Origin: a virus
Direction: 5' to 3' (one strand)
Length of the DNA: 64,000 nucleotides
IMG/VR virus record: IMGVR_UViG_3300017605_001488
Coordinates: 1-64,000 of that record
How positions within the stretch are numbered: the first letter of the stretch is position 1; each line of letters begins with the position of its first letter. A program made the translations under genes and the position numbers. The notes beneath the pieces are model-generated. The model had not been told where the DNA came from, made no database searches, and saw nothing but the letters and a program-made list of their open reading frames with translations. Of this stretch, positions 1,888 through 52,474 are shown in pieces.

Positions 1888-2643
1888 CTAGTCCTTGTCG
1901 AGTCGTCCGTCCATGTGGATGATGGCGGCGGTGTAGAGCTCTTTTCCGTTGCGATCGACGTACCGCACGTCGAGACGCCCATCGCGAATCAACCGACGGC
2001 GCACGAACCGTTCCTGGTTTTCCTGCAACCGACGCCACTTGTGGTTCTCGATCTCCGATTCGAGCCGCACCACGTCGACAGGCACACGGTCGCGCGCGAG
2101 CGGGGCGAGGTCGCGCAGCCACCCCGTCCCGATCGAGGCGAGCGCCGGCGGTGCCCCCGCGACGAGCTCCATCATCCGCCGATGCACGAGCATCGACCGC
2201 GTGTCACCCGGTGCGCCCAACCGATCCATCGCGCCCAACGCATCGACGATGTCAGCGTCCCCGTTCACATGCATCCACGCGGCGGCGGCCTTCTCGAGCG
2301 GGCACATCGTCGACGTGTCGAGCAGTTCGCACAACCACACCGGCAGCACCACCGCGATCGGTTCGCGTTCGTACATGCGCTGACACACGAACAACCGCGG
2401 CACCGACACATCGCGATCGAGCCGTTCGAGGATGCCCCACACGGTGCTTTTCGTTGACGTGGACTCGCGCGAGTCCGACACCTTCACCCACGAGCAGAAC
2501 GGCACGATGTTCCGATGCACGGTGCACGGCGTCCACAACGGCTTCCCGAAGTGCGTAACGAATTCGCACGTGTCGGTTTGCGCTGGCCCGGGATGCGGCC
2601 ACGTACATCGGAACTCCGCACGGATGGCACCCAACCACGTCAT
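1888..2643 (-). CDS. Hypothetical protein (PxW...RLG paralogue family)
   Basis: ATGA overlap with upstream gene; LPVW...DADIVDALGAMDRLG. Confidence 0.65.
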   Translation of the reverse strand: MTWLGAIRAEFRCTWPHPGPAQTDTCEFVTHFGKPLWTPCTVHRNIVPFCSWVKVSDSRESTSTKSTVWGILERLDRDVSVPRLFVCQRMYEREPIAVVLPVWLCELLDTSTMCPLEKAAAAWMHVNGDADIVDALGAMDRLGAPGDTRSMLVHRRMMELVAGAPPALASIGTGWLRDLAPLARDRVPVDVVRLESEIENHKWRRLQENQERFVRRRLIRDGRLDVRYVDRNGKELYTAAIIHMDGRLDKD

Positions 2644-3053
2644 GGGCACGCCCGCTCGAGGAATTCGACCAGCACGCCGACCTTCGGACTAAGCAGGAAC
2701 ACCCCCCACAGCGCCTCCGCGAATTCCTGATCGCGTGCAGCGCGTGCCGCGCCTTTGGAGACGAGATCGTATCGACCACCATGCGGATGCAGGTTCGCCG
2801 TCTCCTTGTTCGCGGTCACGTGGTGCGCCAACGGGAGCAACACCTCGGTCATCCACCGCGGCAGCAGCTTCCCGATGGGCCACGGGCCGTTGATGTCCGT
2901 TGCACGTGAAACTGTCACGCATGCGAGGCGGTCGGCGGCATCGGACTCGACCGGACCGACGACGACCATGTCGTGCGCCGTGCGTCGTTCCCGCGGCACC
3001 GGGTCATCGAGCACGCGCGTCGTCGACAGCATCCGCGCCCTCCCAAACATCAC
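2640..3053 (-). CDS. Hypothetical protein (PxW...RLG paralogue family)
   Basis: GTGA overlap; LPRW...RAARDQEFAEALWGVFLL. Confidence 0.6.
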   Translation of the reverse strand: MMFGRARMLSTTRVLDDPVPRERRTAHDMVVVGPVESDAADRLACVTVSRATDINGPWPIGKLLPRWMTEVLLPLAHHVTANKETANLHPHGGRYDLVSKGAARAARDQEFAEALWGVFLLSPKVGVLVEFLERACP

Positions 3054-3442
3054 GCACCCGCACGGTACGACCGCTCGCGGCGCTTCCAATCCCGGAACGG
3101 CTTGTCCTCGTTACGAGTCTCCTCGAACATGCACGTGATGGCCATGGACGCAGCCTCGATGTTTTCAGCAAGCCGGTACGCACCCATCGACGAGTTGGCG
3201 CGGTCCATCATCTTCATGGCGTTCGGCGCGCACGCGCACCACCGCAGCACCATCTCGGCGAACTTGTCCTTGCGTTGGTCGCGCCCATGCCGCCCAGCCT
3301 TCTCGCGCCCAACGATCGACGACACGACCGTGTACGCCCACCCGGGGACGAGCTCCATCACGGTCGCGTCTATCTTGTACGGACGCAGCACGACCTTCCA
3401 ACCCGGCGGCCATCCATCGTCCCACGGCACCGCACCATCCAT
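3050..3442 (-). CDS. Hypothetical protein (PxW...RLG paralogue family)
   Basis: Starts MDGAVPW; VPGW...RWCAC...MGAYRLA. Confidence 0.6.
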   Translation of the reverse strand: MDGAVPWDDGWPPGWKVVLRPYKIDATVMELVPGWAYTVVSSIVGREKAGRHGRDQRKDKFAEMVLRWCACAPNAMKMMDRANSSMGAYRLAENIEAASMAITCMFEETRNEDKPFRDWKRRERSYRAGA

Positions 3443-3444
3443 CG

Positions 3445-4008
3445 TCAACCCCTCAATCGTTTGATTCGACCCTCGACGAACGCGAGCTGCAACACGAGCT
3501 GCTGCACGCGACTGTATGGCAACGACCACGCGGTGCGCACCGTGGCCAGCATCTCGTCGCGTTCCGCAACGGCTGCGTCGAGACGTACCTTGCGCGCCTC
3601 ACGTCGTTTCGCGCGCGCACGTTCGTTACGCGCGGAGTCCCGATCGCGCTTGTCGTTGTACTTGCGGCGCGGCTTCTTCACCGGCGGCGGATCGGGGACG
3701 GGGTCCGGCACGTCGGGAACATCCGGCGGCGGTTCCAACGTCGCCACGAACGCATCGACCGCGTCGACGGGTTCGGGCGTCGCCGGTGGATCGATCATCC
3801 GTTGGCGGCGTGTCCTGACGGGCGTGGGCGTGGGTTCGGCAGCCGCCCGACGCGCCGCCATCGCTGCACACGCACGACACGTGCGCCGGGTCGCGCGCGC
3901 GGAACATCGACCGCAGTACCACCCCTGCGTGTCGCACTCCGCGCACGCAGCGGCCGTTGCCGGTTCCCCGACATCGATCCCGCGATTGCACCCGGCGCAT
4001 CGTCGCAT
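3445..4008 (-). CDS. Cys-rich zinc-finger protein with basic coiled-coil C-terminus
   Basis: Four CxxC pairs, Pro-rich linker, basic helix. Confidence 0.6.
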   Translation of the reverse strand: MRRCAGCNRGIDVGEPATAAACAECDTQGWYCGRCSARATRRTCRACAAMAARRAAAEPTPTPVRTRRQRMIDPPATPEPVDAVDAFVATLEPPPDVPDVPDPVPDPPPVKKPRRKYNDKRDRDSARNERARAKRREARKVRLDAAVAERDEMLATVRTAWSLPYSRVQQLVLQLAFVEGRIKRLRG

Positions 4009-4011
4009 CGG

Positions 4012-4224
4012 TTAGTACCTCGGGAACGGTCCGCCGCGCATCATGCCGATCGGCGCACTCATGAATCGATGCCACGCATTGACCATGTCGTCCTTGGCCG
4101 ACTCCGCCTCCGAGAGCTTGCGCTTGAGCGTCTTGTTCTCCTCCTGCACCTTGTCAAGCTCCTTGATCGTACGCAACGCACCGCGCGCCTCAGCTAGCGC
4201 CGACGCGACCTCGAACCGTCCCAT
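4012..4224 (-). CDS. Small coiled-coil hypothetical protein
   Basis: 70 aa ORF in a tiled minus-strand operon. Confidence 0.55.
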   Translation of the reverse strand: MGRFEVASALAEARGALRTIKELDKVQEENKTLKRKLSEAESAKDDMVNAWHRFMSAPIGMMRGGPFPRY

Positions 4225-4540
4225 GGCCTTCGTTGAACTTGTCGATCTGCTGCTGGTCCTTGCACGCCCCCTCGAACCACTCGTCGGTCCACACGGCGAA
4301 CACGATCGAGCACTCCTGCGCGTAGCCGATCGTCACCCCGACGGCGGTGGGCAGGTACCGATCGATGGCACGCGCGGCAGCGATGGCCGATTCCTCCGAC
4401 ACACGCCCGACGAACTTGCTGTGCAGCGCCTTACGCGCCGTTTCGAGGAATGCGTACGCCTTCAGCTTCGAGGTGTTCAACTTCTCGATCGCCTCGACAC
4501 GTTCGATTTCCCTGATCTCCGCCTGTGTTTTCCTGGTCAT
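4190..4540 (-). CDS. Hypothetical protein
   Basis: 116 aa ORF, ATGA overlap. Confidence 0.6.
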   Translation of the reverse strand: MTRKTQAEIREIERVEAIEKLNTSKLKAYAFLETARKALHSKFVGRVSEESAIAAARAIDRYLPTAVGVTIGYAQECSIVFAVWTDEWFEGACKDQQQIDKFNEGHGTVRGRVGAS

Positions 4541-4872
4541 GTTTTCCTGCCCTTCGTGATTGCGCTGGCCATCATCGCGCCGAGTGGTGCTTCACCCGCC
4601 GCGATGGTGGCGTCGTCGACCTTCCGTGCACGTTTCCGGTTCTTCCTCATCGCGCCCATCTCGGGCGGCCCGCCCATCGAATCCGTCAACTCCGACACAA
4701 GGGTCTCGGTGGCCGTCACGCGCGCGAGCAACGCCCGCATGCGTTCGCGCAGCCGCTCGCGTTCGTCCTCGAGCTCGATGAGCCGCGCGAACAGCTCGTC
4801 GGCAATGGGCGCACCGACCGCCGCGAGCAGCCGCCTCGTGTTGGCGCGGTCGATCGGTACGTACGCCATCAC
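4537..4872 (-). CDS. Coiled-coil hypothetical protein
   Basis: GTGATG start overlapping upstream stop. Confidence 0.55.
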   Translation of the reverse strand: MMAYVPIDRANTRRLLAAVGAPIADELFARLIELEDERERLRERMRALLARVTATETLVSELTDSMGGPPEMGAMRKNRKRARKVDDATIAAGEAPLGAMMASAITKGRKT

Positions 4873-5156
4873 CGCACCAACCGTTCGAGGCGCGCACGCG
4901 TCGTCGTCGACATCCCCGACGGGTTGGTGCGCAACCACTCGCGCGTTGCAACCGCGCGCGCCTCGGTCATGTCCTTGCCGAGCCCGGAACACATCACGCG
5001 CTTCGCGCCGTCCGGGTGCGGATACCGCGTGATCGACGTGTAGTACTGATTCCGCGCATCGAGCCACGAGCTCACGAGCCCGGGTGCGCGCTTGTCGCCG
5101 GGGTACGTTTCCGTCAGCGCTTGGAGCAACGTGTGCTCGAGATCCAACTCGTCCAT
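4869..5156 (-). CDS. Hypothetical protein
   Basis: Starts MDELDLEH; GGAGGT RBS. Confidence 0.6.
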   Translation of the reverse strand: MDELDLEHTLLQALTETYPGDKRAPGLVSSWLDARNQYYTSITRYPHPDGAKRVMCSGLGKDMTEARAVATREWLRTNPSGMSTTTRARLERLVR

Positions 5157-5160
5157 CGGG

Positions 5161-5718
5161 TCACCTCCGCGCTTTTTCTTGCGCGGTCGATGGGGCGTTC
5201 GCGAACAGCTTGCACGCGGGACAGTCCACGCCGTGGCGCGGGTGCGGGCACGGCACTGCCGTCGGCTTCGGCATGTGATGCTTCCACGGCGGGGGCGCGA
5301 ACGGGTTGCCGATGATGCGCATCTCGTCGCCAGCGAATTGGTGCGGGAACACCAGGTCGGAATCGAACTTGTGGCGCGTGAGCGCGTACGCCGTCGACAT
5401 CGCCGCATGCACATCGGGCGTGTTCGGGTGACCCACGAACGACATGAGCGTGTCGAACACGCGTTGGCTGCCCGCGTTCCAAACGGGCGGGGTGTGCGCC
5501 TCAACGATCTGGGAATCGTGGACGCGGGTGAGCTTCACCGCCTCGCGCCAACGTCCAGTCACTCGCATGATGCGCTCGATGTCCTTCGGGCGAACGAACC
5601 CGCGGTCACGCATTGTGACCGACGTGGCGCCGAACATCACCACCGTCGACCCTTGAGGCAAACCGAGGAGGTGGCAGAACGTGCGGCGCGTTCGGGCGGC
5701 GATCTTCCGTGTCGACAT
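5161..5718 (-). CDS. Hypothetical protein (weak member of PxW family)
   Basis: Starts MSTRKIAA; PPVW...FVGHP...AAMSTAYAL. Confidence 0.55.
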   Translation of the reverse strand: MSTRKIAARTRRTFCHLLGLPQGSTVVMFGATSVTMRDRGFVRPKDIERIMRVTGRWREAVKLTRVHDSQIVEAHTPPVWNAGSQRVFDTLMSFVGHPNTPDVHAAMSTAYALTRHKFDSDLVFPHQFAGDEMRIIGNPFAPPPWKHHMPKPTAVPCPHPRHGVDCPACKLFANAPSTAQEKARR

Positions 5719-6134
5719 CAGAACTTGCCCTCGTTGCGGAATCGCATGATGTACGGGTGCACGCACGCGAGCACCGACACGCACACCGACCCGGCGTTCG
5801 CGTGGTGGTTCCGTTCAATCAACGCACGCACGAACCCGAGCAGCGGCAACCACTTGTCAGGGTCCGCGTGCGCGACCGCGGCGTCGAAGTCGTTGTGGCT
5901 CGCGCGCAACATGGCAGACCCGTCGGAGTTCGACACGTCCGACACATCGGACACGGTGCGGTGCTCGAGCTCGGCGATCCACTGGTACACGTACTCCCAC
6001 GCCTTCGTTCGCGCATCGAACAACGGCGGGATGCACCCGGGACCGTTCGCGAGAATCCCCGCCGGCGGTGCCGCCGCCAAGTCGTTCAACATCGCCAGAA
6101 TCGCCGCCGTATCTTCCGCCCAGCTCATGCCCAT
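5718..6134 (-). CDS. Hypothetical protein
   Basis: 138 aa ORF directly downstream of promoter repeat copy 1. Confidence 0.6.
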   Translation of the reverse strand: MGMSWAEDTAAILAMLNDLAAAPPAGILANGPGCIPPLFDARTKAWEYVYQWIAELEHRTVSDVSDVSNSDGSAMLRASHNDFDAAVAHADPDKWLPLLGFVRALIERNHHANAGSVCVSVLACVHPYIMRFRNEGKF

Positions 6135-6150
6135 GGGTCACCTCGCGACC

Positions 6151-6191
6151 ATCATACGCATGATTGCAGTGATTGCAAGTATTGCAATCAT
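6151..6191 (-). promoter_or_regulatory. Conserved phage promoter/operator motif, copy 1
   Basis: Minus strand TTGCAATACTTGCAATCACTGCAATCATGCGTATGAT (TTGCAA-N16-TATGAT); five copies in the window. Confidence 0.8.
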
Positions 6192-7753
6192 CCCACGACG
6201 CGCATGCCGACCCCGCCGCTCTGACGACGCTGGTTATCGAACACGCGGCACCCTTCACGCGCGAACCACGACGCCATCAACCGGTCGCCGGTGTGGTCCT
6301 TCGGGTTGTAGGTCAGCATCTCCCGAATCCACGCATCGATTTCCTTGTGCACGCGCAGGCCGCCCTTGACGAGCGAGCCGCCCTCGTTCGGGATGATCCA
6401 CTTCCCGGATGCAATCTCGGCGGCGACGCCCTGCACGCCCCATTCGGGGTGAGCCTTGTTTCGACCGGTGGTGAACGGTCGACACGTCGCCATCGTCAGC
6501 TTCTCGGCGAATTGCAGGATGTACTGCTGCGCGGCGTTGTTCTCGACGATGAAGATGCCACCGAACCGGTCGTACACGTTCTCGATGGCGTCGACGATCT
6601 CCGGACCGGCCATCTTGGCGGTCTCGATGTTCAACACCTGACGGAGCCCATCCGGCCACAACAGCACCGTGAAGATGCACGTGAGGTCGGCGGCCTCGGT
6701 CTTTCGTGACGCGAGGTCGACGCCGTGGAAGATGGCGAACCCTTCGTGCAACCGGGACAGCGCCTCGATCGCGTTCCCGAGCTCGTCGCGGTCGGTGATA
6801 CCGGACTCGAGCTCACGGATTAGGTCGTAGTCCCGTCCGAGCTCGATGCCGCGTTCGATCCATTCCTTCTTGAATCGCGCATCCTCCTCGTCGCGCGACA
6901 TGCACAGAAGCTGACGCGCGAACTCGAGCGGACCGAGCTCGATGCGCTTCTCCTCGATGCGGTCCTTGGGCCATTGCCCCGGCCACAGCAGATCGCCCGA
7001 GACCTCATCAACGATGGGGAACCGGAAGCTCTTGTATCGCTTGTTCGCGGCGAGCCGATGCAGCGCGTCCTCGGGGTGCCACGCGTTGCCCGGTGCCCAC
7101 ACGCGGGCGTTCGCCGTCAATCGACCGACCAGCGTGGACTGGATCCACTGCCATAGGTCGCGCCGCCCCGAATCGCGATCGACGTTTTCGTAGTCGAGGA
7201 TGTCGTCGAGGATGAGCAGGTCGATACGTGCGCCGAGGATGTTGCCGTGCACGCCGCACGCCTGCACGGATGGGTCCTTCGCGAGGATGGTGCGCTCGAC
7301 GGTGATGGCGTTCGCCGTCCACGGCAACGATTGGTCGCGCGCCGGCTTGAGGTCGGGAAAGATGGCGTGCAGCTCCGCCGACTTCTCGATGTACTGCGCG
7401 ATGAGCCGAACGATCTTCTTCGCCTGCTCGTTGGTGTTCGACACCACCGCCACGCGGAGGTTCGGGTTTTTCCCGAGCTCGTACAACACCCGCCCGACGC
7501 TGATCTGCGTCGTCTTCCCCGACTCGATCGATGCCCACAACACGACGCGGTCGTGGTCGTTGAGGATGTCGTGCCACTGATTGTGGAATGGCGCCTGCTG
7601 GACCGGCCGCCCGGCCTCGTCGCGCAGCACCATCTGATTGAAGAAGCTCGGGTCGTTGCGCGCGACCGCGAGGTTGATGTGGTGCGCCCGGCTATACGCG
7701 GTTTGCGCGTTGACCTTGCAAGCGACGGCGGGATCGGCGAGTGCGACGGACAT
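6188..7753 (-). CDS. terL: Terminase large subunit
   Basis: Walker A (IESGKTT), Walker B (LLILDDILD), RNase H-fold nuclease motifs GVDLAS, IVENN and HTGDRLMA; 521 aa. Confidence 0.92.
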   Translation of the reverse strand: MSVALADPAVACKVNAQTAYSRAHHINLAVARNDPSFFNQMVLRDEAGRPVQQAPFHNQWHDILNDHDRVVLWASIESGKTTQISVGRVLYELGKNPNLRVAVVSNTNEQAKKIVRLIAQYIEKSAELHAIFPDLKPARDQSLPWTANAITVERTILAKDPSVQACGVHGNILGARIDLLILDDILDYENVDRDSGRRDLWQWIQSTLVGRLTANARVWAPGNAWHPEDALHRLAANKRYKSFRFPIVDEVSGDLLWPGQWPKDRIEEKRIELGPLEFARQLLCMSRDEEDARFKKEWIERGIELGRDYDLIRELESGITDRDELGNAIEALSRLHEGFAIFHGVDLASRKTEAADLTCIFTVLLWPDGLRQVLNIETAKMAGPEIVDAIENVYDRFGGIFIVENNAAQQYILQFAEKLTMATCRPFTTGRNKAHPEWGVQGVAAEIASGKWIIPNEGGSLVKGGLRVHKEIDAWIREMLTYNPKDHTGDRLMASWFAREGCRVFDNQRRQSGGVGMRVVG

Positions 7754-7756
7754 GGC

Positions 7757-7800
7757 GTGGTGCGTGCGGCGGCCGGCGTGACCCGGTCCGGACTACTCTA
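7757..7800 (-). promoter_or_regulatory. terL leader: TG-n-TAGAGT -10-like element plus GTCACGCCGG/GCACGCACCAC box
   Basis: Both blocks (7773-7782, 7757-7767) recur upstream of the ParB gene (21870-21879, 21857-21867). Confidence 0.6.
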
Positions 7801-8161
7801 CCACGCCCGCATCGCGGAGGTATTTGGCCACCGCGTGCCGCGTCGGTGCCACCCCGTTCGTCCCGAGCAACCGATCGATCGACAACAGCGCCGCCATCTT
7901 TTCCGCGTCCGTGACGAGCTTGACCAACGCGCGCCCGCGTGCATCGTCGCTGAACCCCGCCTGCTCGATGAGCCACGATGCCTTGCGTACGTCGCCACGC
8001 TTGTCCGGGTCGATGGGGGTTGCATCGAAACGCGTGACGAGTGCGAGGATGCACGTGATACCACGACGGTGTTGGGGGATGGCCGATGCACCGAACATCC
8101 GTTCGCCACAACACGGGCACGTGACCATCATCTCGCGAAGGGTTTTCTTTGCTGTGGTCAT
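7793..8161 (-). CDS. C2HC zinc-finger protein (PxW...RLG family)
   Basis: CPCC-x11-H-x5-C, then W...DAEKMAALLSIDRLLG. Confidence 0.6.
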   Translation of the reverse strand: MTTAKKTLREMMVTCPCCGERMFGASAIPQHRRGITCILALVTRFDATPIDPDKRGDVRKASWLIEQAGFSDDARGRALVKLVTDAEKMAALLSIDRLLGTNGVAPTRHAVAKYLRDAGVVE

Positions 8162-8625
8162 CAATCGAGCTCGCAATGCTTCGCGGTGGCGGGATCGAGG
8201 ATGGTGAGGTACGCATCGAGCTCGTCACCGACGTGCACGACATCGGCATCGGTGTCGACGGCCCAAAGCAGTCGCCACGTCGCCGACACAGCCGCCGCGA
8301 TCTCGACGGGGTCGGGTTGCATCCCCACGAACTCGAGCACCGACCCGAGATGATGGGGGCTCATCCCCTGCGTCGCATCCGTGTCCTGGTACAACGTGTT
8401 CGCGAGCGCGTACGCCCACACGGGCACGCCGCGCGTGCGCGCATCGGAGAATTCCTCGTGCGGCGGATGCGGCGGATCGAACCCCATGCCGTCACACATC
8501 CGCCGCTGCGACTCCCACCGCTTCCGGTTCTTCGCCTCGATGCCCATCGCGTAGTCGAACGCCTCGCGCATCGCGCTCGACATCGTGTGCCACGGAATGC
8601 GGTCCTCGGTGCGGGTGCGGGTCAT
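8161..8625 (-). CDS. Hypothetical protein (PxW family)
   Basis: VPVW...PDPVEIAAAVSATWRL. Confidence 0.6.
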   Translation of the reverse strand: MTRTRTEDRIPWHTMSSAMREAFDYAMGIEAKNRKRWESQRRMCDGMGFDPPHPPHEEFSDARTRGVPVWAYALANTLYQDTDATQGMSPHHLGSVLEFVGMQPDPVEIAAAVSATWRLLWAVDTDADVVHVGDELDAYLTILDPATAKHCELD

Positions 8626-8966
8626 TGGTCGACGAGCTCCACTTGTAACCGTGCGATGAGTGCATCACGTCCGCCATCGAGCCGACGCAACGCCTCAAGG
8701 TACGCGCCCTTCGCGGCTGGGTCGGGATCGTCCTTGCACGCGAGCAGCGCCAACCGCACCCACGTGAGTCCCATCTCCTCGGTGGCGCGTGCCGAGCCTT
8801 CGAGGACGGGTTGTCCCTTCGGTCCGTAGTACACGAGCGTGGCCAACATCGCCGCCCACCGCGGCGTCACGCGGTCGCCGTCCTCGTCCTCGACGACGAG
8901 GTCGCATTCGACCAACGCCGACACGACCTTCGCGCCGAGGTGTTGCACGGGCCACCACTTCGCCAT
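8622..8966 (-). CDS. Hypothetical protein (PxW family)
   Basis: TPRW...DPDPAAKGAYLEALRRLDG. Confidence 0.6.
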   Translation of the reverse strand: MAKWWPVQHLGAKVVSALVECDLVVEDEDGDRVTPRWAAMLATLVYYGPKGQPVLEGSARATEEMGLTWVRLALLACKDDPDPAAKGAYLEALRRLDGGRDALIARLQVELVDQ

Positions 8967-9280
8967 CACGACCCCAATGCGTGCGTCGGGTCGTCGATCG
9001 GGATCTGCGCGATGAACTCGTCGGCGTGGTCCGGGTCCTCGGCACGCATGAACGCGATGCACGCCATCGGGTCGTCCTTCAGCTTCACGATCGTACGCAA
9101 CGCGTCGAGCGTGCGTTGCGGGTCCGGGCGCGTGTCACACCACCTGCACAGGATGTCCGCCATCGTGTCACCGCGTTCGTGCGACAACTCGCGCCACCCT
9201 TCGGAATGCCAGGCCGACGAGGAGTTGGTGCGCCACGCGCACCCCCAATACTGCTGCCCCGTCGGCCCGTGATAGCTCAC
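8966..9280 (-). CDS. Hypothetical protein (partial PxW-family similarity)
   Basis: RWCDTRPDPQRTLDALRTIVKL; coupled to neighbours. Confidence 0.55.
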   Translation of the reverse strand: MSYHGPTGQQYWGCAWRTNSSSAWHSEGWRELSHERGDTMADILCRWCDTRPDPQRTLDALRTIVKLKDDPMACIAFMRAEDPDHADEFIAQIPIDDPTHALGS

Positions 9281-9708
9281 CGCACGGCCTTGCTGTAACC
9301 GTCCGATGCACCGCCGTGGTCCGTTCGACGCGACACGTGCGCGTCGGCCACGAACAACTCGAACGCACGATACGTCCGGCCGGACGGGCTCGACATGCGG
9401 TCACCGAGGTACACGATGCGCACGATGGTCCCTTCGTCGATGCCCGCGGCGTCGAACAACGAATTGACCACGGTACCCGACACGGTCGTCGTCGCCTTGT
9501 CGGTTTGGATGAGCACGATCGAGTACGGCCCATACACGCCGGCGCGCATCCGTCGCCCGACGAACCGGCCTACGAGTGTTTCGCCCTCGCGCATCGGCCG
9601 CCAAATGTGCGGCGCTTCGACGCGGCGCCATTGCACGCCGTCGGCGATGAGCGGGATCTCACGCCCCACCTTCTCGGTCGGTTGCCTTCGTTTCGGTTTG
9701 GTCGCCAT
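9277..9708 (-). CDS. Small OB-fold-like protein, possibly ssDNA-binding
   Basis: W-P-xx-GETLVG...VRIVYLG...GRTY-x-F pattern of small phage OB-fold proteins. Confidence 0.5.
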   Translation of the reverse strand: MATKPKRRQPTEKVGREIPLIADGVQWRRVEAPHIWRPMREGETLVGRFVGRRMRAGVYGPYSIVLIQTDKATTTVSGTVVNSLFDAAGIDEGTIVRIVYLGDRMSSPSGRTYRAFELFVADAHVSRRTDHGGASDGYSKAVR

Positions 9709-10144
9709 GTTGATTCTCCCACCCGACGAGGCGTTCGATAGCCTTGGCCGCGTCGTGGCTGTTTTCTGCGAGCGCGTCGACCGCGTGCACAGCGCGCACC
9801 CGCTGCCAACGCTCCCTGCGGTCCTTCGCCTTGCGCGCCCATTCACAAGCTAGCAACACCCACTCGACTCGGACGATGTCGATCGTCGGGTGCTCGTCGT
9901 CGATGAACAGCCGCCGCCCATCTGTCGGCCACAACAACCCACGCACCAAGGTCCTGGCCCAACGCGCACGACCGTAGTACCGCGTGAGGTCTTCGAGGAT
10001 GGTGCGGTCGTGGCGCACGCCCCTCACAATGTCGTTGGCGATGTCACGTCCGGGTTGCCACGCGTGCACCCACAGCGCGCGCGGCAACGACAACCGGACG
10101 CGCTCGGCCCACGCACCGCGCTCGGGTAACCACGGTTCGCTCAT
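9659..10144 (-). CDS. Hypothetical Trp/Arg-rich protein
   Basis: Starts MSEPWLPE; ATGA overlap. Confidence 0.55.
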   Translation of the reverse strand: MSEPWLPERGAWAERVRLSLPRALWVHAWQPGRDIANDIVRGVRHDRTILEDLTRYYGRARWARTLVRGLLWPTDGRRLFIDDEHPTIDIVRVEWVLLACEWARKAKDRRERWQRVRAVHAVDALAENSHDAAKAIERLVGWENQHGDQTETKATDREGGA

Positions 10145-10683
10145 AGACCCATTGTGAGCCGGTCGGCGGTGGTGATTCCAACCATCCGCACCGCGGCGCC
10201 GTATGCGTCGATGCGACGCAGCAACTCCGGACCGTCGCCGGCCTTCGCCACCCACGCGCATGCGCGCGCGAAGCACAGCACGCTCATGTCGTCGGTGACA
10301 CACAACGGTCGACGCACCTGGGCAATCTCGCCGCTGAGGATGTCGACGCCGTCGGTGACATCGGCCACCATCACGAACAACCGGTTGTAGAACATCACCA
10401 CCCAATCGGGTGCCCGCGCGCGCAACGTGTCCGCGGTGAGCCCGTGGGGGCTCACACCGGCAGCGACCGCACCACGGATGACAGCCAACGTGCCGAGCGG
10501 TTCCTGGTTCCAACCGCGCCCGTTGCATACGGTGCAGAACAACGAATCCTCGCGCGGCCTGCACTCGGTGCCGAGGACGCCAGTCGCGTTGCACTTGTCG
10601 CACGGCTTGCGTTCCCAATCGGGAACGCCACCCTGGTTGAGCAATTCCGTACGCCCGTGTCGATCGGATCGTCGTCGGGTCAT
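10141..10683 (-). CDS. Zinc-ribbon protein (PxW family)
   Basis: CDKCNATG/CTVCNGRG, then APDW...AYGAAVRMVG. Confidence 0.6.
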   Translation of the reverse strand: MTRRRSDRHGRTELLNQGGVPDWERKPCDKCNATGVLGTECRPREDSLFCTVCNGRGWNQEPLGTLAVIRGAVAAGVSPHGLTADTLRARAPDWVVMFYNRLFVMVADVTDGVDILSGEIAQVRRPLCVTDDMSVLCFARACAWVAKAGDGPELLRRIDAYGAAVRMVGITTADRLTMGL

Positions 10684-11219
10684 GCTGGCACCGGCAACGG
10701 CGGCAATATCATCCCGACCGGTCGCGACCGAAACGGCGGCATGGCCCACGGTCGCCCAACTGCGAACCCGACGGACTTGCGCAGCTCGATGACGCGGTGG
10801 CGTGCGATGCCCGCGAGCCAATCGGCGAGCTCATTGCCTGGATTGCCGTTGTGCCCCTTCACGTGCTCGAGGCGCACCGTGTCCTTGTGCATCTCGTACA
10901 CGCCCTGGATCTCTCGCACGAGGTCGACATTCTTCTTGATGTTGTACTCGCCGCGCGCGCACCCGATGGCGTACGCGCTGTCGCTGTACAGGACCGCCGG
11001 CGTGTCGCACCCGGCCGCGTGTTCGTGCGCGACCCATCGAATCAGGTACAACGCGCGACGGATGGCCCACAGCTCCGCCACGTTGTTCGTGCCCGGGCAA
11101 ATGTACGCGCTCGACTCGCACAGGATGCGCCCAGACGCGTCGGCCACGACCACGCCGATGCACGCCGGCGAATCCGCGTGATGCGTCCCCGACCCGTCCG
11201 CGAACGCCTGCAACATCAC
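10680..11219 (-). CDS. rnhA: Ribonuclease HI
   Basis: FADGS, GTNNVAEL, YSDSAY, HVKGH-x4-GNELADWLA. Confidence 0.93.
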   Translation of the reverse strand: MMLQAFADGSGTHHADSPACIGVVVADASGRILCESSAYICPGTNNVAELWAIRRALYLIRWVAHEHAAGCDTPAVLYSDSAYAIGCARGEYNIKKNVDLVREIQGVYEMHKDTVRLEHVKGHNGNPGNELADWLAGIARHRVIELRKSVGFAVGRPWAMPPFRSRPVGMILPPLPVPA

Positions 11220-11689
11220 ACACCCATCCTTTCAAGCATCACGACCACCGCCGCACCCACCCGATCAGGGTCCCGATCGCACAGCGGCAGAATGGCAAGC
11301 ATCGCCGCACGAAACTCCTCGTCATTGACGGCGCGACGTAGCAGGTCGGGGACGCGGTACTTCGTGTCGATGACAGCACCTTCGACGATGAAGTGGAATT
11401 CGTACGCCCAACCAGGAACCCAGATCCCTTTATCGACGCGACTCGAGCCCCACGCCGGCCCCTTGTATCGGAGCGAGCCGTACTCGATCGGCACGCCCGC
11501 CTCCCTCATGTCGTATTCGTAGTGCCGCGCCATCGGAAGCAACCCACGATCGCGTTGCTTCTTGACGTACGATTCGACGGCGCACTTGTTCGTCTTCTGG
11601 TGCTTGGTCAACGATCGCTTTGACACGACCTCGCCGCACCGCGGGCATGCACGCCCATCGTCCTCGAACGTCTCATGCACTTCGGACAT
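11216..11689 (-). CDS. C2HC zinc-finger protein (PxW family)
   Basis: CPRC-x11-H-x5-C; VPGW...RRAVNDEEFRAAMLAIL. Confidence 0.65.
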   Translation of the reverse strand: MSEVHETFEDDGRACPRCGEVVSKRSLTKHQKTNKCAVESYVKKQRDRGLLPMARHYEYDMREAGVPIEYGSLRYKGPAWGSSRVDKGIWVPGWAYEFHFIVEGAVIDTKYRVPDLLRRAVNDEEFRAAMLAILPLCDRDPDRVGAAVVVMLERMGV

Positions 11690-12003
11690 CACGGCTCCTC
11701 GATCAGCTTGACGATGGCGGCGCGGATGACCGTCATGCCCGGCCCGCGTTCGTTGACGATGCGGACCGTCGTGCGCATCGCGTCTAGCCGCGCCTGCATC
11801 CCCGCCACCGTGCGCCCGCACCGCACCCAACCTTCGACCTTGTCGGCCATGTCCTTCGCGCCCCACCACTGCGCGAATGCCCGCGCCGCCATGACGATGC
11901 GATCCATCTCCGTGCCGACACGCGGTTGCGGCTCGCCGCCGTGGTCCGTGTTCGGCCAAATGTCAGTCCACCGGCTCACGGCTCTACGAATTGCGCGCCA
12001 CAT
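11689..12003 (-). CDS. Hypothetical protein
   Basis: 104 aa tiled ORF; start uncertain. Confidence 0.5.
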   Translation of the reverse strand: MWRAIRRAVSRWTDIWPNTDHGGEPQPRVGTEMDRIVMAARAFAQWWGAKDMADKVEGWVRCGRTVAGMQARLDAMRTTVRIVNERGPGMTVIRAAIVKLIEEP

Positions 12004-12379
12004 GATCGAGTACCGCCCGTGCTCCGCGGATGTGCGTCCTCGACAGCTGCGCCAACGACATCAACGCGCCCGCACGCTCGACGGGGTCGCCCTGTCGACA
12101 CCATCGTAGGATCTGCTCGATGCTTCGCTCGAGCTCGTCTTTCCCCTCACGCCCGTCGAACGTTCTGGACTCCACGGGCAACACGAGCGCGAGGTGCCGC
12201 ACGAGCGGATGTAACCAATCCGGCGCGTTGTGCTCCGATGCGGCCTGCGCCACCGGCGTCGTCGGGCGGTCCGAACAGAACGCGCGCCCCTCGGCGGCAC
12301 AACGACACGGCGTGCGAAACCGCATGATGATGTGTCGGGCGACATCCTCGCGTATGCTTTTCGCCAGGGGCATCGACAC
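11984..12379 (-). CDS. Hypothetical protein (PxW family)
   Basis: APDW...RWCRQGDPVERAGALMSLAQL; directly downstream of promoter copy 2. Confidence 0.6.
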   Translation of the reverse strand: MSMPLAKSIREDVARHIIMRFRTPCRCAAEGRAFCSDRPTTPVAQAASEHNAPDWLHPLVRHLALVLPVESRTFDGREGKDELERSIEQILRWCRQGDPVERAGALMSLAQLSRTHIRGARAVLDHVARNS

Positions 12380-12380
12380 A

Positions 12381-12414
12381 CCCTACGCATGATTGCGTTG
12401 ATTGCAACTATTGC
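12381..12414 (-). promoter_or_regulatory. Conserved phage promoter/operator motif, copy 2
   Basis: Minus strand GCAATAGTTGCAATCAACGCAATCATGCGTAGGG. Confidence 0.75.
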
Positions 12415-12416
12415 GG

Positions 12417-12965
12417 CTAGTGAATCGAGTGCCGCCCGGCGACGAAGTGCTTGACGGTGTTGTCGAGCACCTGCTGCCACGTGCTCGCGAAGTCGCTGTC
12501 GGGCGGCATGCCGACACGCATCATGTGCGTGATGGCGAGGTCGAGGATGTGCGCCGCGGTCGTGTCGTCGATGCCGGTGACCTGGTGCGCGAGGTCCAAC
12601 GGCGTGAGGAACTTGTGCGTGGCGTCGGGCGACAGCGACGGCGGCCCGTCGGTCGGGTCGACGGCCGCGAACATGAATTCGTGCGACGCATTGGGGAACC
12701 GGAGGAACGGCGCCTTGGTGTTCGGGATCGTCCGCAGGTGGTACACGCCGCAGGACCACCACTCCCAGAACGCGTGAGCCCCCGGACAGCACACCATCCA
12801 CGCGCCGAGCCCGGCATCGTGTTCGGGGTACCGCCGTTTGCCGACCGGCGCGAGCGGGATGCGGTGCGCACACCACATGCGCGTCGTGCCGTCGGTCATC
12901 CGCACCGCCGGGCCAATCATCGACGCATCGGGCGTGTGCCCGCACTTCGTGGGACTAGGTGCCAT
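12417..12965 (-). CDS. Hypothetical protein
   Basis: Starts MAPSPTKC; GAAGGAGG RBS. Confidence 0.65.
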   Translation of the reverse strand: MAPSPTKCGHTPDASMIGPAVRMTDGTTRMWCAHRIPLAPVGKRRYPEHDAGLGAWMVCCPGAHAFWEWWSCGVYHLRTIPNTKAPFLRFPNASHEFMFAAVDPTDGPPSLSPDATHKFLTPLDLAHQVTGIDDTTAAHILDLAITHMMRVGMPPDSDFASTWQQVLDNTVKHFVAGRHSIH

Positions 12966-13410
12966 AGTTCGGTCCTCCTTCGATACGATGCGATGGAATG
13001 CCGACCGCGGCGAGCACGTCGAGCCCCTTCGTGATTCGATACGGTTGGTCGTAGTACACGGCCTCAACGCCGCCGAGTTGGATGATGCGCTTGGCGCACG
13101 CGACGCACGGGAGGTGCGTGGCGAAGAACACCTTGGGGGTCGCGCGTGCTTCACGGCACGCGATGACGGCGTTCTCCTCCGCGTGGATGCACCCGCACGC
13201 ACCGGGCTCGGTGGTGTCGCATCCGTTCGGCAGCCCGGCCGCATTGCCATTGTACCCGACGGCGAGGACCTGCCGGAAGTCCGCCGACACGACCGCGGCA
13301 CCACACCGCATGATGAGCCCGACCGAGTTGGTGCGGGCACACGTCGCGCGCGTCGACATGAGCCACGCGAGCTGCATGTAGATCGTTTGGAAGCTCGGGC
13401 GGTCACTCAT
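12955..13410 (-). CDS. dCMP deaminase (ComEB-like)
   Basis: RATC, GYNG, HAEENA and PCVAC zinc-deaminase motifs. Confidence 0.92.
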   Translation of the reverse strand: MSDRPSFQTIYMQLAWLMSTRATCARTNSVGLIMRCGAAVVSADFRQVLAVGYNGNAAGLPNGCDTTEPGACGCIHAEENAVIACREARATPKVFFATHLPCVACAKRIIQLGGVEAVYYDQPYRITKGLDVLAAVGIPSHRIEGGPNYGT

Positions 13411-13984
13411 CGGTTCCCCCTACGGTCAACAGCGGTCGTTTCATCATCCCGGCGAGCAACGCCGGTAGGTTCTTCTTCCCGAGGATGACATTGACCTTCT
13501 CGCGTGCGTCGCGAAACGCTTGCTCGATGGCCAACAACGCGTTCCACGCCTCGTCCGTGTACGGGATGATGTGATCGCCGCGCTCCCACACGTGGCGAAT
13601 GTCGGTGTTCTCCGCACGTGCTTTCTTCTGGTGCACGCCCTTCAAGTCCTCCGCGAAGCTGCGCTCGACGTGCGCCGGCCCACCGGGGTCGTCGAGCTTC
13701 GGCGCGCGTTCCATTCGACGCACGATGAGCGTGACCTCGACCCGGTGCAACTCGTGCTCGACGGCGCTGCTGTGCGAACAATCGCCCTCGCCGGCCATCT
13801 GCACCTCGATGTATCGCGCCCACTTGTACCCGGAACCGAGCCGCTTGAGCATGGCCAACGCCGCGACGTGGCATGCATCGGCGGTCGGCGCACGCACCTC
13901 GTTGTCGAAGTCGTATCGCGCGAAGAAGTCCTTGTTCTCGCGATGCATCGGCGGTCGGCGCATAGCGCCCGCGACGGGCTCCAC
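13403..13984 (-). CDS. Hypothetical protein
   Basis: 193 aa ORF; start uncertain. Confidence 0.6.
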   Translation of the reverse strand: MEPVAGAMRRPPMHRENKDFFARYDFDNEVRAPTADACHVAALAMLKRLGSGYKWARYIEVQMAGEGDCSHSSAVEHELHRVEVTLIVRRMERAPKLDDPGGPAHVERSFAEDLKGVHQKKARAENTDIRHVWERGDHIIPYTDEAWNALLAIEQAFRDAREKVNVILGKKNLPALLAGMMKRPLLTVGGTDE

Positions 13985-14011
13985 ACGGTCTCGACCTTGA
14001 ACGGCTTGAGT

Positions 14012-14581
14012 TTACGTCCCATCGTCCCACCCTTGCGCGCGCAACACCGAGGCGATGTCGGGCGGCAACCACCCCGCCGGCTTCACGGGCTTGGCCCACC
14101 CCTCCGTCGGCGAAGGACCTTTCGCCATGTTCGCACGATACACCGCCGCGTACACCGGGCCGGCGTCGACGCCGAACGTGATGAAGCACCCCTGGTTCAC
14201 GAACCCGATGTCGGCCATCGCGTCGATCGCCGCGGGCATGTCTACGTCGACGGGCGTGCGCTGGCACATGTCGACCACATCGCGCTCGACGGTCTTGAGC
14301 ACTTCGAGCTGTCCGTCGGCCCACCCGAACAACGCCGCAACGAGCTCGAATGCTTCCTCGATGGTGAGCTTCGCACGCAACCGCACCCATGCATCGGTCG
14401 GCACGCGCGGCGTCGCGCCGATGGGTTGCTCGAACCGGTCGTGGAACGCTTGCACCATTCCGTCGAGCTCCGATTGCCCGCGACGGGCGGCGCGTAGCTC
14501 CACGAGCTGCTTCGTGCACAACGATTGCAACGCGGTCACTTGGGCGCGCAGCCGCGCCACCTCATCGATGATTGCGTCCAT
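14012..14581 (-). CDS. MazG-like / PRA-PH-type nucleoside triphosphate pyrophosphohydrolase
   Basis: VxAFHxxF, EEAFEL, DAMAD, VYRANMAKG, KPVKPAGW-xPP. Confidence 0.85.
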   Translation of the reverse strand: MDAIIDEVARLRAQVTALQSLCTKQLVELRAARRGQSELDGMVQAFHDRFEQPIGATPRVPTDAWVRLRAKLTIEEAFELVAALFGWADGQLEVLKTVERDVVDMCQRTPVDVDMPAAIDAMADIGFVNQGCFITFGVDAGPVYAAVYRANMAKGPSPTEGWAKPVKPAGWLPPDIASVLRAQGWDDGT

Positions 14582-14765
14582 GGATCCTCGCTTGCCGCCG
14601 CCGCGTCACGAGCGGATCGGCCTTGTACTTCTTCGACAAGGGCTCGTCCGCCCCCACCCGGTTGTGAATGATGGCGTCCTCGTCCAACGCCTCGCGCACC
14701 GATTCGTAGAACGCCTCGTCACGCTTGATCGGCCTGTCCGCCTTCGCCCGCGCCCGTGCCGCCAT
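14562..14765 (-). CDS. Small basic hypothetical protein
   Basis: 67 aa; GGAGG RBS. Confidence 0.5.
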   Translation of the reverse strand: MAARARAKADRPIKRDEAFYESVREALDEDAIIHNRVGADEPLSKKYKADPLVTRRRQARIHGRNHR

Positions 14766-15006
14766 TCGGTTCCTCCGTAGGTGTCCGTATTGCGCGGAGG
14801 ACGACGACTTCGGTCTCCCGGTACAGCTTCAACCATTTGCCGGTCTTGTTGTCCTTGGTGATCTTGTTGTCGGCGCCGACGTGCACGAACGTCACGCCGT
14901 CCATCACCACAACCGGCGCATGCATGGTGCGGTCGTCGACGGCGAGGGCGTCGTCGATGCGCCCATCGCGGTACAGCAACCGCAGCGTGACCACGGTGGT
15001 GCTCAT
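14719..15006 (-). CDS. Hypothetical protein
   Basis: Starts MSTTVVTL; ATGA overlap. Confidence 0.55.
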   Translation of the reverse strand: MSTTVVTLRLLYRDGRIDDALAVDDRTMHAPVVVMDGVTFVHVGADNKITKDNKTGKWLKLYRETEVVVLRAIRTPTEEPNGGTGAGEGGQADQA

Positions 15007-15893
15007 TGACACGCTCGACATCCGGCACACACCGCCGCGAGCTCGGTGCCCTTGCCATCGGGAGCCGACGGGTCGTACGCGTGCAGGCCGTCACCGCAAC
15101 AATTCCCGACGGGCTGCACGAGGACGATTCCGGGCGCGTCGTCGACGGGCGGCGTCGGTTGCATGAACTGCCCAAGGACCTTCTGCCCATCGAGCAACGC
15201 CTCCAACCGCTTTCTGAATCCGGCCTTCTGCTGTGTGAGCTGTCGCGTCGCATGCAGGTGGCATCCGCGCACGCGCTTCCGCAACGCGACGACCATGTCG
15301 AGCAAGCAATCCTTGTCGGCGGTCTGGAACAAGTACGCGCGCTCGCGTGCGTCCATCACCGTCGGCACGCCATCGGCGTCGACCGGCACCTCGAACGAGA
15401 TGGGCTTGGACGGGTCGGATTCGTCCAACGCCGCCGCGACCTCCTCGCGCATCTTCTCGACCCACGTCTTGCTTGGCATCGGCAGCACCGTTGCGCAGAT
15501 CGTTTCGCGCGTGGCGTGGTCGACCTTGAGCACGAGCAACACCGATTCGCCGTTGACCTCGATGATGGCCTGCCGTTGTCCGTGGATGGTGAGCTCCTTG
15601 AGCACGACCGCACTTTCGGCGGCGGCCTCGAGTGCGGCACGCGCGGCGTCGACATCCATCGCGCGTTCGTATCGTTGGATGTACCGCTCGATGGCGTGCT
15701 GATGAAAAACGATTCTCACGGGGTGCCTCCTCAATCGCGGCGGTCGGCGGCCCACGCCCATCCGATGCGCCGACGTGAATGCTACGCCCCCACATCGGGG
15801 GCAAGACGGAGCCTTGCGCGCGAACGCCCACCTTTCCGCGGCGTGTTTGCACCCCGAACACGTGAGCCACAACACCCGCACGTACCGCGTCAC
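15003..15893 (-). CDS. Hypothetical protein (HAIERY motif; possible internal start at 15719)
   Basis: N-terminal CxxC...CxxC; strong GAGGAGG before GTG 15719. Confidence 0.55.
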   Translation of the reverse strand: MTRYVRVLWLTCSGCKHAAERWAFARKAPSCPRCGGVAFTSAHRMGVGRRPPRLRRHPVRIVFHQHAIERYIQRYERAMDVDAARAALEAAAESAVVLKELTIHGQRQAIIEVNGESVLLVLKVDHATRETICATVLPMPSKTWVEKMREEVAAALDESDPSKPISFEVPVDADGVPTVMDARERAYLFQTADKDCLLDMVVALRKRVRGCHLHATRQLTQQKAGFRKRLEALLDGQKVLGQFMQPTPPVDDAPGIVLVQPVGNCCGDGLHAYDPSAPDGKGTELAAVCAGCRACQ

Positions 15894-49849: not shown

Positions 49850-50569
49850 CTACGCGCCATCGATCAGCCGCATCAATCCCACGGCGAGGTCGGCCCCTTT
49901 GCCGCCGCCCGCCTTGCGCAACGCCCGCTTCACCCGTGCGAGGTCTGCTCGTGTCCCGAACGTGAGTTCGAGCACGAACGGCTTGATGGGTGCATCGGAG
50001 TCGTCGGGCACCGCGCCCATCTCGGGCGTGATGTCCAACGACGCGTCGACGGTGGTCTTGACGAGGTCGGCGATCTCGCTCGGGGAAAACCCGGTCAAGC
50101 TCAGGTCCTCGATCGACCACCCATCCGCGTGCATGTCCGCCAACGTCGACGCCACCGCCGACAGGTCGAGCTCGCCGCGTAGTCGGTTCATTCCGATTTG
50201 GGCGATGCGTGCCTGTTCGGCATCCATGCCCACGACGACGCACGGCAACTCCGTCATCCCGTTGGCCTCGGCCGCACGCACGCGGTGCCATCCGTCGACG
50301 ATGACGAACTTGCTGGCGAGCCGCATCGTCGCCTCGACGGCGGCACGGAACTCCTCGATGGTGCACGACCCCTGCTCGGGGAGCTCGATCGTCTCCTCGC
50401 CCTCGTCGATGGGTCGGACGAGCACCGGTTGCACGAACCCGATGCGCAACATCGCCGCTTGCAGCGTGTCGCGCTTCTCCTGGTCCATGCGATTCGGGTT
50501 CTCGGGCGGGTCCGCCAGCCGCGAGATCGGAATGCTGATGATTCGGGCGCTTTCGTAGCTATCGAACAT
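49850..50569 (-). CDS. ParB/Srx N-terminal domain protein (second)
   Basis: NPNRM, GFVQPVLV, IVDGWHRVRAA, MNRLRG. Confidence 0.88.
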   Translation of the reverse strand: MFDSYESARIISIPISRLADPPENPNRMDQEKRDTLQAAMLRIGFVQPVLVRPIDEGEETIELPEQGSCTIEEFRAAVEATMRLASKFVIVDGWHRVRAAEANGMTELPCVVVGMDAEQARIAQIGMNRLRGELDLSAVASTLADMHADGWSIEDLSLTGFSPSEIADLVKTTVDASLDITPEMGAVPDDSDAPIKPFVLELTFGTRADLARVKRALRKAGGGKGADLAVGLMRLIDGA

Positions 50570-50579
50570 GGCGGTGATA

Positions 50580-51176
50580 CTAGCCCCTTCTCGCCCGGGC
50601 GAGATCCCAAAGCGTCCCGTCCTGCACCACACGTGATCGGAGCCGTGCCGTCATCGCGTGCACCGCCGGCGGTGCGATGCCGAGCAACGTGGCGACCTCG
50701 CGCGGCGTCGTCTCCTCGAGCAGCACCGGCACGACGGGAATCAACCCCTCGACGCGGGCGACATCGATCAACCGTGCGCGCACACGTTCGCGCCATTGCT
50801 TCTCCTCGACCGCCGCGAATTGCCCCGGACCCTGGTCGACGAGGTGCACCGACCGCTGCTCCGTTTCGTCGCACCCGTCATCGCCTGCGATGCCGGTACG
50901 GTGCAACCCTCGGTACGACTTTTCGGGGCGGTGCTTGCCGCCGCTGACGGGCGCGGACATCGACCAGAGGAACCGCCGCACGGCCAACACCACCGCCGTC
51001 CAGAAGTAGCCTTCGGGCTCGTCACCCGCGCCGGCCACGTACGTGTGTCGCGCCTCGGCGCACGCGACGTGTCCGACCTGGCGCAGCTCCGCCGGCTCCG
51101 CCCACCAACACCGTCGGGAGTAGCGGCTCGTGACCTTGCGCACGATCTCGATTTCGGCTTCTACGCTAATCGGCAT
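50580..51176 (-). CDS. Divergent sigma-70-like factor
   Basis: Region-2-like ELRQVG...A...Y...YFW; C-terminal HTH TPREVATLLG. Confidence 0.6.
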   Translation of the reverse strand: MPISVEAEIEIVRKVTSRYSRRCWWAEPAELRQVGHVACAEARHTYVAGAGDEPEGYFWTAVVLAVRRFLWSMSAPVSGGKHRPEKSYRGLHRTGIAGDDGCDETEQRSVHLVDQGPGQFAAVEEKQWRERVRARLIDVARVEGLIPVVPVLLEETTPREVATLLGIAPPAVHAMTARLRSRVVQDGTLWDLARARRG

Positions 51177-51657
51177 GGGATGCTCCCTCGTTTTTCTTCA
51201 ACAACATGGCGCGCTGTGCTTGAGCGACGACGGCGGGCGGTCCGTACAGGACCATGCCATCGGGCCTTCGCAAGATGACGAGCACGCGTTTCGACAGCAT
51301 CTGAATCAGGTGGAACCCGTCGCCGGTCGTGGCGGCACCGGGCCACACCTCGTAGGCAACCGCCGCCTGACGGACGCCCTGCCCATCGGCAACGAACACG
51401 TCGCTTGCTGCGGTCGCCGAGAACATCAACCCACATCGGTCGGGGCGGTGCATCGCATCGATGAGCCCCTGCAACCACAAGCACTCAAAGTCGCGGCACC
51501 CCTTCGGGCGCTCGTCGTAGATGCCGCACAGCCGCTTGTGTCCGACATCGATGAGGTGATCGCACGTGCCCCATCGCTCCTTCCGGACGGGTTCGACCGC
51601 GAGTCCGGTGCCTTGACAGCACGCCGTACACGTTCCGCACTTCCTAGGCTTCGGCAT
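51166..51657 (-). CDS. CxxCxxCC (YkgJ-like) metal-cluster protein
   Basis: CGTCTACC, CDHL, CGIYDERPKGCRDFEC. Confidence 0.8.
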   Translation of the reverse strand: MPKPRKCGTCTACCQGTGLAVEPVRKERWGTCDHLIDVGHKRLCGIYDERPKGCRDFECLWLQGLIDAMHRPDRCGLMFSATAASDVFVADGQGVRQAAVAYEVWPGAATTGDGFHLIQMLSKRVLVILRRPDGMVLYGPPAVVAQAQRAMLLKKNEGASHAD

Positions 51658-52474
51658 CGTCATCCTCCGCGAGTGGTGACTCCACGCCGCCGGTCCACCA
51701 CGCGAGCGCGCGGTCGAACTCCGATTCGGCTTCTATCTGCTGCTTTTCTACTCGTCGCGGGTTCTCGATGATGCCCGCGGCCTTGATGTCATCGTTGACG
51801 GTCTCGCGGTCGGTGCGGATGCCGTCGGCTTTCTGGGCATCGCGCTCCGGCTTCTTTCCGTCGTAGTACTTCACGCGCGAGCCCAACTTCTTGAGCTCCT
51901 TGTCGAGCGCCTTCTTCTGCTTGAGCAGGTCCCGGTACGCCGTGCGCGCCTCGCGTTCGTCCTTGTCGGCACGTTCGCGCGCCAACCGCTTGCGGCGTTC
52001 GCCGGCGGTCTCGATGAGCAACGCGATGGGGAGTTCCCCGTCACCGAGCCGACCGGTCGCCTCGACGGTGTTGCGGAAGTCGGCATCGTTCGCCGCGCGT
52101 CGGATGGCGTCGTGCATGCGGTACAGCGGCGCGTAGTTCGCGAGCAGGTAGATCCAGCTCGTCGGCGCCCACACACCGCCCGACGGCGCACGCGTGGTGC
52201 GCATGCCGGGGATGGCCACTCCCTGCGCTTCCGCCCAATCGAGCAAGCACGACCGTCCGCGCATGTGTCGGGGCATCGCATGCAACACGATGGACCGCGA
52301 ACAGTGCGGGCACGTCGTGCGGTGAAGCGGTCGCGTCTTGTTACGCTCCTTCAGCGTCTTACTGATCTGCGCGTTGCGCACGTTGAGGCGCGACAACGAC
52401 GACACGACGGTCGGCGTGGGTGCCGGCGCGGGACCCGCGTGGATTTGGATCGGTCCCGTGGTCGATTGCATCAC
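51644..52474 (-). CDS. C2HC zinc finger plus PxW...RLG module plus coiled coil
   Basis: CPHC-x11-H-x5-C; APTSW...RRAANDADFRNTVEATGRLG. Confidence 0.65.
   Translation of the reverse strand: MMQSTTGPIQIHAGPAPAPTPTVVSSLSRLNVRNAQISKTLKERNKTRPLHRTTCPHCSRSIVLHAMPRHMRGRSCLLDWAEAQGVAIPGMRTTRAPSGGVWAPTSWIYLLANYAPLYRMHDAIRRAANDADFRNTVEATGRLGDGELPIALLIETAGERRKRLARERADKDEREARTAYRDLLKQKKALDKELKKLGSRVKYYDGKKPERDAQKADGIRTDRETVNDDIKAAGIIENPRRVEKQQIEAESEFDRALAWWTGGVESPLAEDDDAEA

Follow-up and report, generated by a model that had tools for sequence, protein, structure and literature searches.

A dispersed family of small paralogues with a predicted C-terminal four-helix bundle in an isolated phage genome

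Large phages and DNA viruses carry multi-copy families of accessory genes, such as those of the Bro/KilA-N type. The family described here likewise consists of dispersed and tandem paralogues that lie among non-structural genes and combine one conserved module with variable partners. We found no sequence or fold relation between the two, and the analogy is one of genome organisation only. The family is encoded in the first 64 kb (64,000 nucleotides, hereafter the window) of the IMG/VR virus record IMGVR_UViG_3300017605_001488, a single contig of 96,875 bases with direct terminal repeats that is rated 100% complete. Open reading frames (ORFs) are named by their lower coordinate, so that 11216 designates 11216–11689.

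Other described systems resemble individual parts of these proteins. Classical beta-beta-alpha C2H2/C2HC zinc fingers (Pfam zf-C2H2, zf-C2HC_2 and CEP104_ZnF) share the Cys-Cys-His-Cys spacing with 24–25 of the family sequences that have the region, and show the same two short strands and helix as the predicted model of 11216. Compared with PDB sequences, the family matches through its finger columns only, and matches classical C2H2 fingers. The family is unlike typical C2H2 proteins in that it has a single finger, in which the final ligand is Cys, and in that this finger is joined to a body without counterpart in any zinc-finger family. The finger, with best scores of 13.6–16.8 bits against Pfam gathering thresholds of 25–27 bits, falls below all of them. 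The N-terminal half of the fold is best matched by the Rad4/XPC beta-hairpin domains, with which it shares a helix-strand-helix unit followed by a long beta-hairpin. The atypical four-helix bundle of VEL, Zuotin (ZRF1) and DAXX also counts among the closest known systems (PDB 7o6v; PMC7614096), and bundles of the VEL/Zuotin type are compact four-helix folds of about 70 residues that self-associate head to tail. As a whole, the family has no match above threshold in Pfam, PHROG or NCBIfam, in keeping with the preliminary description of this DNA, which did not recognise a named domain, and Foldseek searches against the PDB and BFVD returned nothing at E≤1e-3.

The preliminary description had proposed about fifteen paralogues sharing a helical module with the pattern P-x-W ... 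D..F..A...RL(G). The fifteen coordinate pairs indeed correspond to minus-strand ORFs that contain the quoted motifs, with a G+C content at third codon positions of 0.75–0.89, and neither Pfam nor PHROG contains an above-threshold match for any of the fifteen. A genuine dispersed family of paralogues does exist, as its profiles place eight of these ORFs in one group, six firmly (11216, 51644, 7793, 18561, 1888 and 30441) and two as probable members (2640 and 8161). The remaining seven are at noise level with the profiles.

The strongest evidence comes from relatives outside the window. We searched a profile of four core sequences against 1.84 billion representative proteins with a cut-off of E≤1e-3 and obtained 41 matches, of which four are proteins of the window itself and about 12 are multi-finger proteins that match the finger only. 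About 25 cover the whole profile (130–210 amino acids, E-values down to 7e-16), and all external relatives originate from metagenome assemblies and bear no informative name. In alignment A3 of these relatives, the finger takes the form C-x2-C-x(11-12)-H-x(4-5)-C; the other conserved elements are the stretch "R-G-W/L ... A-G-V-P-x-E", W-x-P-x-W with an invariant Trp and, lastly, R-x-x-x-D-x-E-F/W-R-x-A-x-x-A-x-x-x-L-G-G. Two of the external relatives also lack the finger.

A hidden Markov model (HMM) built from the metagenomic relatives alone, and hence independent of the initial choice of ORFs, matches the six firm members with E-values from 4.8e-39 to 1.6e-5, and the best score reached in 30 shuffled proteomes is 9.4 bits. 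Once the six were added to the profile, 2640 scored 12.1 bits (E 1e-3) and 8161 scored 10.1 bits (E 4e-3), with a decoy maximum of 9.0 bits over 30 shuffled proteomes. Addition of these two recruits nothing further, so that the search converges at eight, and hhalign comparisons against every protein agree with this set. Both weaker members adjoin firm ones on the gene map (2640 next to 1888, and 8161 next to 7793); we estimate the chance of this double adjacency at less than 1%, given six firm members among 133 genes. Over the final 33 kb of the genome, profile and six-frame searches detected no family member.

Comparisons among the candidate ORFs yield fewer links. All-against-all BLASTP and phmmer connected 11216 to 51644 (E 6.7e-4), 7793 to 51644 (E 0.002, over the C-x2-C...H...C zinc finger), 11216 to 30441 (E 0.02) and 3050 to 11984 (phmmer, 6e-4). 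With leave-one-out HMMs, 11216 matches a model of 51644 and 30441 (E 5e-7), 7793 matches a model of 11216 and 51644 (E 1.9e-5), and 51644 and 30441 are found at E-values of 0.007–0.03. In a scan with a two-block position-specific scoring matrix that allowed a free gap, 8161 and 1888 came next in rank, the 16.2 bits of 8161 deriving mostly from the P-x-W helix. Under the same matrix, two non-members, the DNA polymerase and helicase of the phage, obtain 12–16 bits, and shuffled decoys therefore understate the natural background, which makes loose motif scans unsafe here.

These motif scores, together with the occurrence of P-x-W alone in 32 proteins against 23.6 expected, would fit a reading in which there is no family and the pattern merely reflects Ala/Arg/Leu-rich composition and amphipathic helices. 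We consider this reading scarcely tenable, owing to the database-scale E-values of the external relatives, the recovery of six members by the HMM built without them and the confident AlphaFold2 model obtained from the alignment. Compositional bias is ruled out for the core six and stands as an explanation for, at most, the seven unsupported ORFs: 29658 (29658–30251), 8622 (8622–8966), 8966 (8966–9280), 11984 (11984–12379), 3050 (3050–3442), 5161 (5161–5718) and 10141 (10141–10683) do not rise above the scores of shuffled decoys or the DNA polymerase.

The six firm members, all on the minus strand, differ in the parts that accompany the bundle. 11216 (11216–11689, 157 amino acids; E 4.8e-39 with the external-only HMM) has the full architecture, with the zinc finger at about 11582–11656 and the four-helix bundle at about 11228–11422. 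The finger of 51644 (51644–52474, 276 amino acids; E 2e-20) lies at 52223–52321 and its bundle at 52004–52192, and the protein carries a charged, coiled-coil-like tail. 7793 (7793–8161, 122 amino acids; E 1.3e-9) has a finger (7979–8128) and a bundle (7820–7978) without the hairpin part, and 18561 (18561–19190, 209 amino acids; E 1.7e-6, 20.9 bits against the decoy maximum of 9.4) has the alpha/beta part and the bundle (18750–19115) without a finger. In 1888 (1888–2643, 251 amino acids; E 7e-6, and 4.7e-5 in the six-frame search), the bundle (2179–2385) is preceded by a Cys/His-rich N-terminus and followed by a long C-terminal extension. 30441 (30441–31214, 257 amino acids; E 1.6e-5), which the 1.84-billion-protein search retrieved by itself as P0008 (E 3e-10), joins hairpin and bundle (30606–30926) to an N-terminal, zinc-ribbon-like CxxC...CxxC head. 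The two probable members, also on the minus strand, match the family profile over the bundle only: 2640 (2640–3053; external-only HMM E 0.04) at 2682–2873, in tandem with 1888, and 8161 (8161–8625) at 8233–8439, in tandem with 7793. Overall, the zinc finger is found in three of the eight members (11216, 51644 and 7793).

An N-terminal CxxC...CxxC(xGxG) arrangement resembling DnaJ and Anti-TRAP (weak Pfam matches, E 0.01–0.1) occurs both in 30441 and in 10141–10683 (minus strand). This phage encodes many small Cys-rich proteins, and weak finger-only matches were seen at 28621, 52471, 38498 and 44005.

The gene neighbourhoods of two members bring specific roles to mind. 7793 sits directly upstream of the large terminase gene (6188–7753, minus strand; phrog_38, E 1e-54), 39 bases away, which is the usual position of a small terminase subunit and one that no other member occupies. 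Since its head is of a DNA-binding type and its C-terminus helical, and no other small terminase was recognised among the neighbours, 7793 could be that subunit, from which a family of DNA-recognition proteins would then have been derived. We judge this highly improbable: 7793 matches no small-terminase family in Pfam or PHROG, eight paralogues are not expected of a packaging subunit, and the predicted bundle is compact, whereas the rings of small terminases are formed by long helical hairpins. 18561, for its part, ends one base before the start of the only clear sigma-70-family gene of the genome (18032–18559, minus strand; Sigma70_r2, 33 bits), a protein for which the word-indexed search returned only the query itself. 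Anti-sigma domains are small helical bundles, often with zinc, and the family might accordingly bind a sigma factor or RNA polymerase, as anti-sigma-like proteins or as appropriators of the host enzyme. This proposal strikes us as very unlikely, as one member of eight adjoins the sigma gene in a genome where nearly all genes are packed as tightly, the H-x3-C-x2-C motif typical of zinc-binding anti-sigma domains is absent, the zinc site of the family is an N-terminal beta-beta-alpha finger that 18561 does not have, and the fold matches include no anti-sigma structure.

We predicted the structure of 11216 with AlphaFold2, both whole (using alignment A3) and as its N-terminal half alone, and placed the other members by alignment. 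The model of the whole protein has a mean predicted local distance difference test score (pLDDT) of 92 and a predicted template modelling score of 0.81, and the N-terminal half folded alone reaches a pLDDT of 93. From the N-terminus, the model predicts a basic C2HC zinc finger and its following helix, then an alpha/beta part that includes a long hairpin, and finally the C-terminal four-helix bundle. According to DSSP, the finger is made of strands 12–14 and 21–23 and helix 24–31; the middle part consists of helix 34–47, strand 50–53, helix 55–64 and a long hairpin (69–79/82–92); and the bundle helices span residues 93–108, 113–122, 124–136 and 141–154. The mean net charge is +4.1 for the finger and the next helix, +1.7 for the middle part and -1.1 for the bundle.

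Conserved columns of the family are C15, C18, H30, C36, W94, D123, R127, A129 and L136. Mapped onto the model, the P-x-W ... D..F..A...RL(G) pattern proves to be the sequence mark of the predicted four-helix bundle. P92-x-W94, with its invariant Trp, marks the start of helix 1; D123 occupies the helix 2–helix 3 junction, its place before helix 3 suggesting a helix cap; in helix 3, F126, A129 and L136 recur at intervals that fit a buried face; and an LG(G) turn precedes helix 4. The preliminary description was accordingly right in describing a common helical module with differing N- or C-terminal parts attached, as the bundle is common to the eight members and the heads vary. The module does not appear to be a free-standing cassette, being the C-terminal bundle of one compact three-part protein. 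A 14-residue near-copy of the helix-3 motif (E ~0.01 against the family profiles) was also encountered within an insertion (residues 72–85) of a ParB_N protein (49850–50569, minus strand; Pfam E 2.4e-7), a look-alike that is probably due to chance or convergence.

Taken as a whole, we favour the interpretation, with a probability of about one half, that the eight paralogues form an uncatalogued family that descends from a three-part ancestor, has kept the bundle and acts as nucleic-acid-binding regulators or host-takeover proteins. The ancestral protein would have been one compact unit of zinc finger, alpha/beta hairpin part and four-helix bundle, and the paralogues would have kept the bundle while the head was lost or replaced. 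The positively charged zinc-finger head may contact DNA or RNA, and the slightly acidic bundle could be a conserved structural core that also offers a possible partner-binding surface. Such proteins would be small nucleic-acid-binding factors with a regulatory or host-takeover role.

Several points weigh against this interpretation. With the finger present in only three of eight members, nucleic-acid binding cannot be the function common to all. None of the external matches is a named relative, and no structure retrieved in the fold searches pointed to a function. The burial of the motif residues is deduced from their helical spacing. Finally, 2640 and 8161 exceed the natural negatives (ParB-like protein, 9.0 bits; DNA polymerase, 7.8 bits) by only 1–3 bits.

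The bundle invites another reading, put forward in the preliminary description, in which all of the roughly fifteen ORFs form one hyper-diverged family whose helical module would tether varied heads to a single machine of the phage or host, or which would constitute a diversified anti-defence arsenal. Indeed, the bundle is the only part common to all eight confirmed members, the heads vary, and the neutral to acidic charge of the bundle is not suggestive of nucleic-acid binding. The spacing of the conserved residues, however, is that of helix-core and N-cap positions, so that they look like a fold signature and not like a surface docking motif, and there is no known partner. A complex prediction with two copies of 11216 gave a score of 0.00, which is no answer and weighs neither way on self-association.

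As for the extent of the family, two tandem runs (8966-8622-8161-7793 and 3050-2640-1888) contain unsupported ORFs alongside confirmed members, and a hydrophobic-P-x-W-hydrophobic motif, a pattern chosen after the candidates had been seen, is present in 15 proteins, the shuffles giving 4.9 ± 2.0. These two observations would be compatible with a remote relation of the unsupported ORFs. Against a family of fifteen stand the seven candidates that remain at noise level with every profile and the behaviour of the W/F-x-x..PDP sub-type that had been assigned to it. A position-specific scoring matrix of the PDP block failed its own leave-one-out test, and a profile of 3050, 11984 and 8966 reached a profile-profile probability of 0.6% with the main family. 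The sub-type is not supported as part of the family, and we regard the fifteen-member docking or anti-defence reading as unlikely.

Within the former sub-type, pairwise shuffle tests link 3050 to 11984 (p 9e-5) and to 8966 (p 3e-4), and 8161 weakly to 5161 (p 0.009). The sequences of 3050, 8966 and 11984, which we could not place in the main family, have in common a helix ending in L-(x)-R-W-C followed by a Pro/Asp-rich turn and may constitute a separate small family. This grouping is only suggestive, because the three had been picked by eye from about 100 proteins. A broader variant, in which the fifteen ORFs and perhaps more small ORFans form a hyper-diverged tandem superfamily, a fast-diversifying arsenal built around a VEL-like bundle that assembles varied heads together or docks them onto one machine of host or phage, appears to us distinctly unlikely; if true, it would take up more than 10% of the genes of the phage.

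The eight-member family itself appears to have expanded long ago. In a tree, window and external sequences interleave, and two members have separate counterparts outside: the metagenomic protein P0004 is 48% identical to 51644 over 199 amino acids and has the same charged C-terminal tail, and the external protein P0005 is 40% identical to 11216. The interleaving and the separate orthologues of 51644 and 11216 indicate that the expansion is old, and the tandem arrangement of 8161 with 7793 and of 2640 with 1888 suggests local duplication. Neither 51644 nor P0012 nor alignment A4 gave a match when scanned against IMG/VR, two genome-contig scans were empty, and a metagenome scan gave three loci that have only the zinc finger in common with the family. 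The word-indexed protein search returned only the query itself for 11216 and little for alignment A3, and the ESM Atlas yielded short zinc-finger look-alikes only.

The phage as a whole is isolated and, by sequence comparison, has no close relatives. Its window has no nucleotide match among 50,697 phage records (megablast), and no phage record was matched by the window, 11216 or P0017 in tblastn and megablast searches. The DNA polymerase I is only about 25% identical to those of known phages, and IMG/VR holds a single 7.8-kb contig with a 40%-identical DNA polymerase, on which there is no family member. The genome has a G+C content of 66%, and the 133 genes called with a codon-usage model lie nearly all on the minus strand.

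A portal fragment is recognised by a library match at 1–732; the portal gene extends beyond the first base of the record and seems to resume at the far end (95130–96875). Large terminase and portal genes are usually adjacent. Here, about 12 small ORFs (729–6134, minus strand), most without a known family and including 2640 and 1888, intervene between them, which is an unusual place for accessory genes. Domain matches elsewhere in the window identify RNase H, dCMP deaminase, MazG-like, DUF1643, AdoMet decarboxylase, DNA methylase, GH25 lysozyme, SbcC/SbcD-like, gp32-like single-stranded DNA-binding protein, helicase, DUF2201 VWA/metallopeptidase and ATPase genes. The AdoMet decarboxylase gene (Pfam E 5e-28) directly adjoins the N6/N4 DNA methylase gene (19855–21790, minus strand). 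An island of three plus-strand genes (27230–28572) interrupts the otherwise minus-strand genome and contains the clearest paralogue pair of the window (27758–28093 and 28090–28572; phmmer E 1.5e-8); Pfam has no match for 27230–27754 or 28090–28572.

In summary, about 6% of the genes of this phage (8 of 133) belong, with the probable members counted, to a family that no protein-family library holds and whose confidently predicted fold has no clear solved counterpart. The member list, alignment, profile and model make the family directly testable. Eight old, diverged copies in which the heads have been swapped and the bundle kept are the pattern expected under diversifying pressure, such as may arise from host takeover, regulation or counter-defence.

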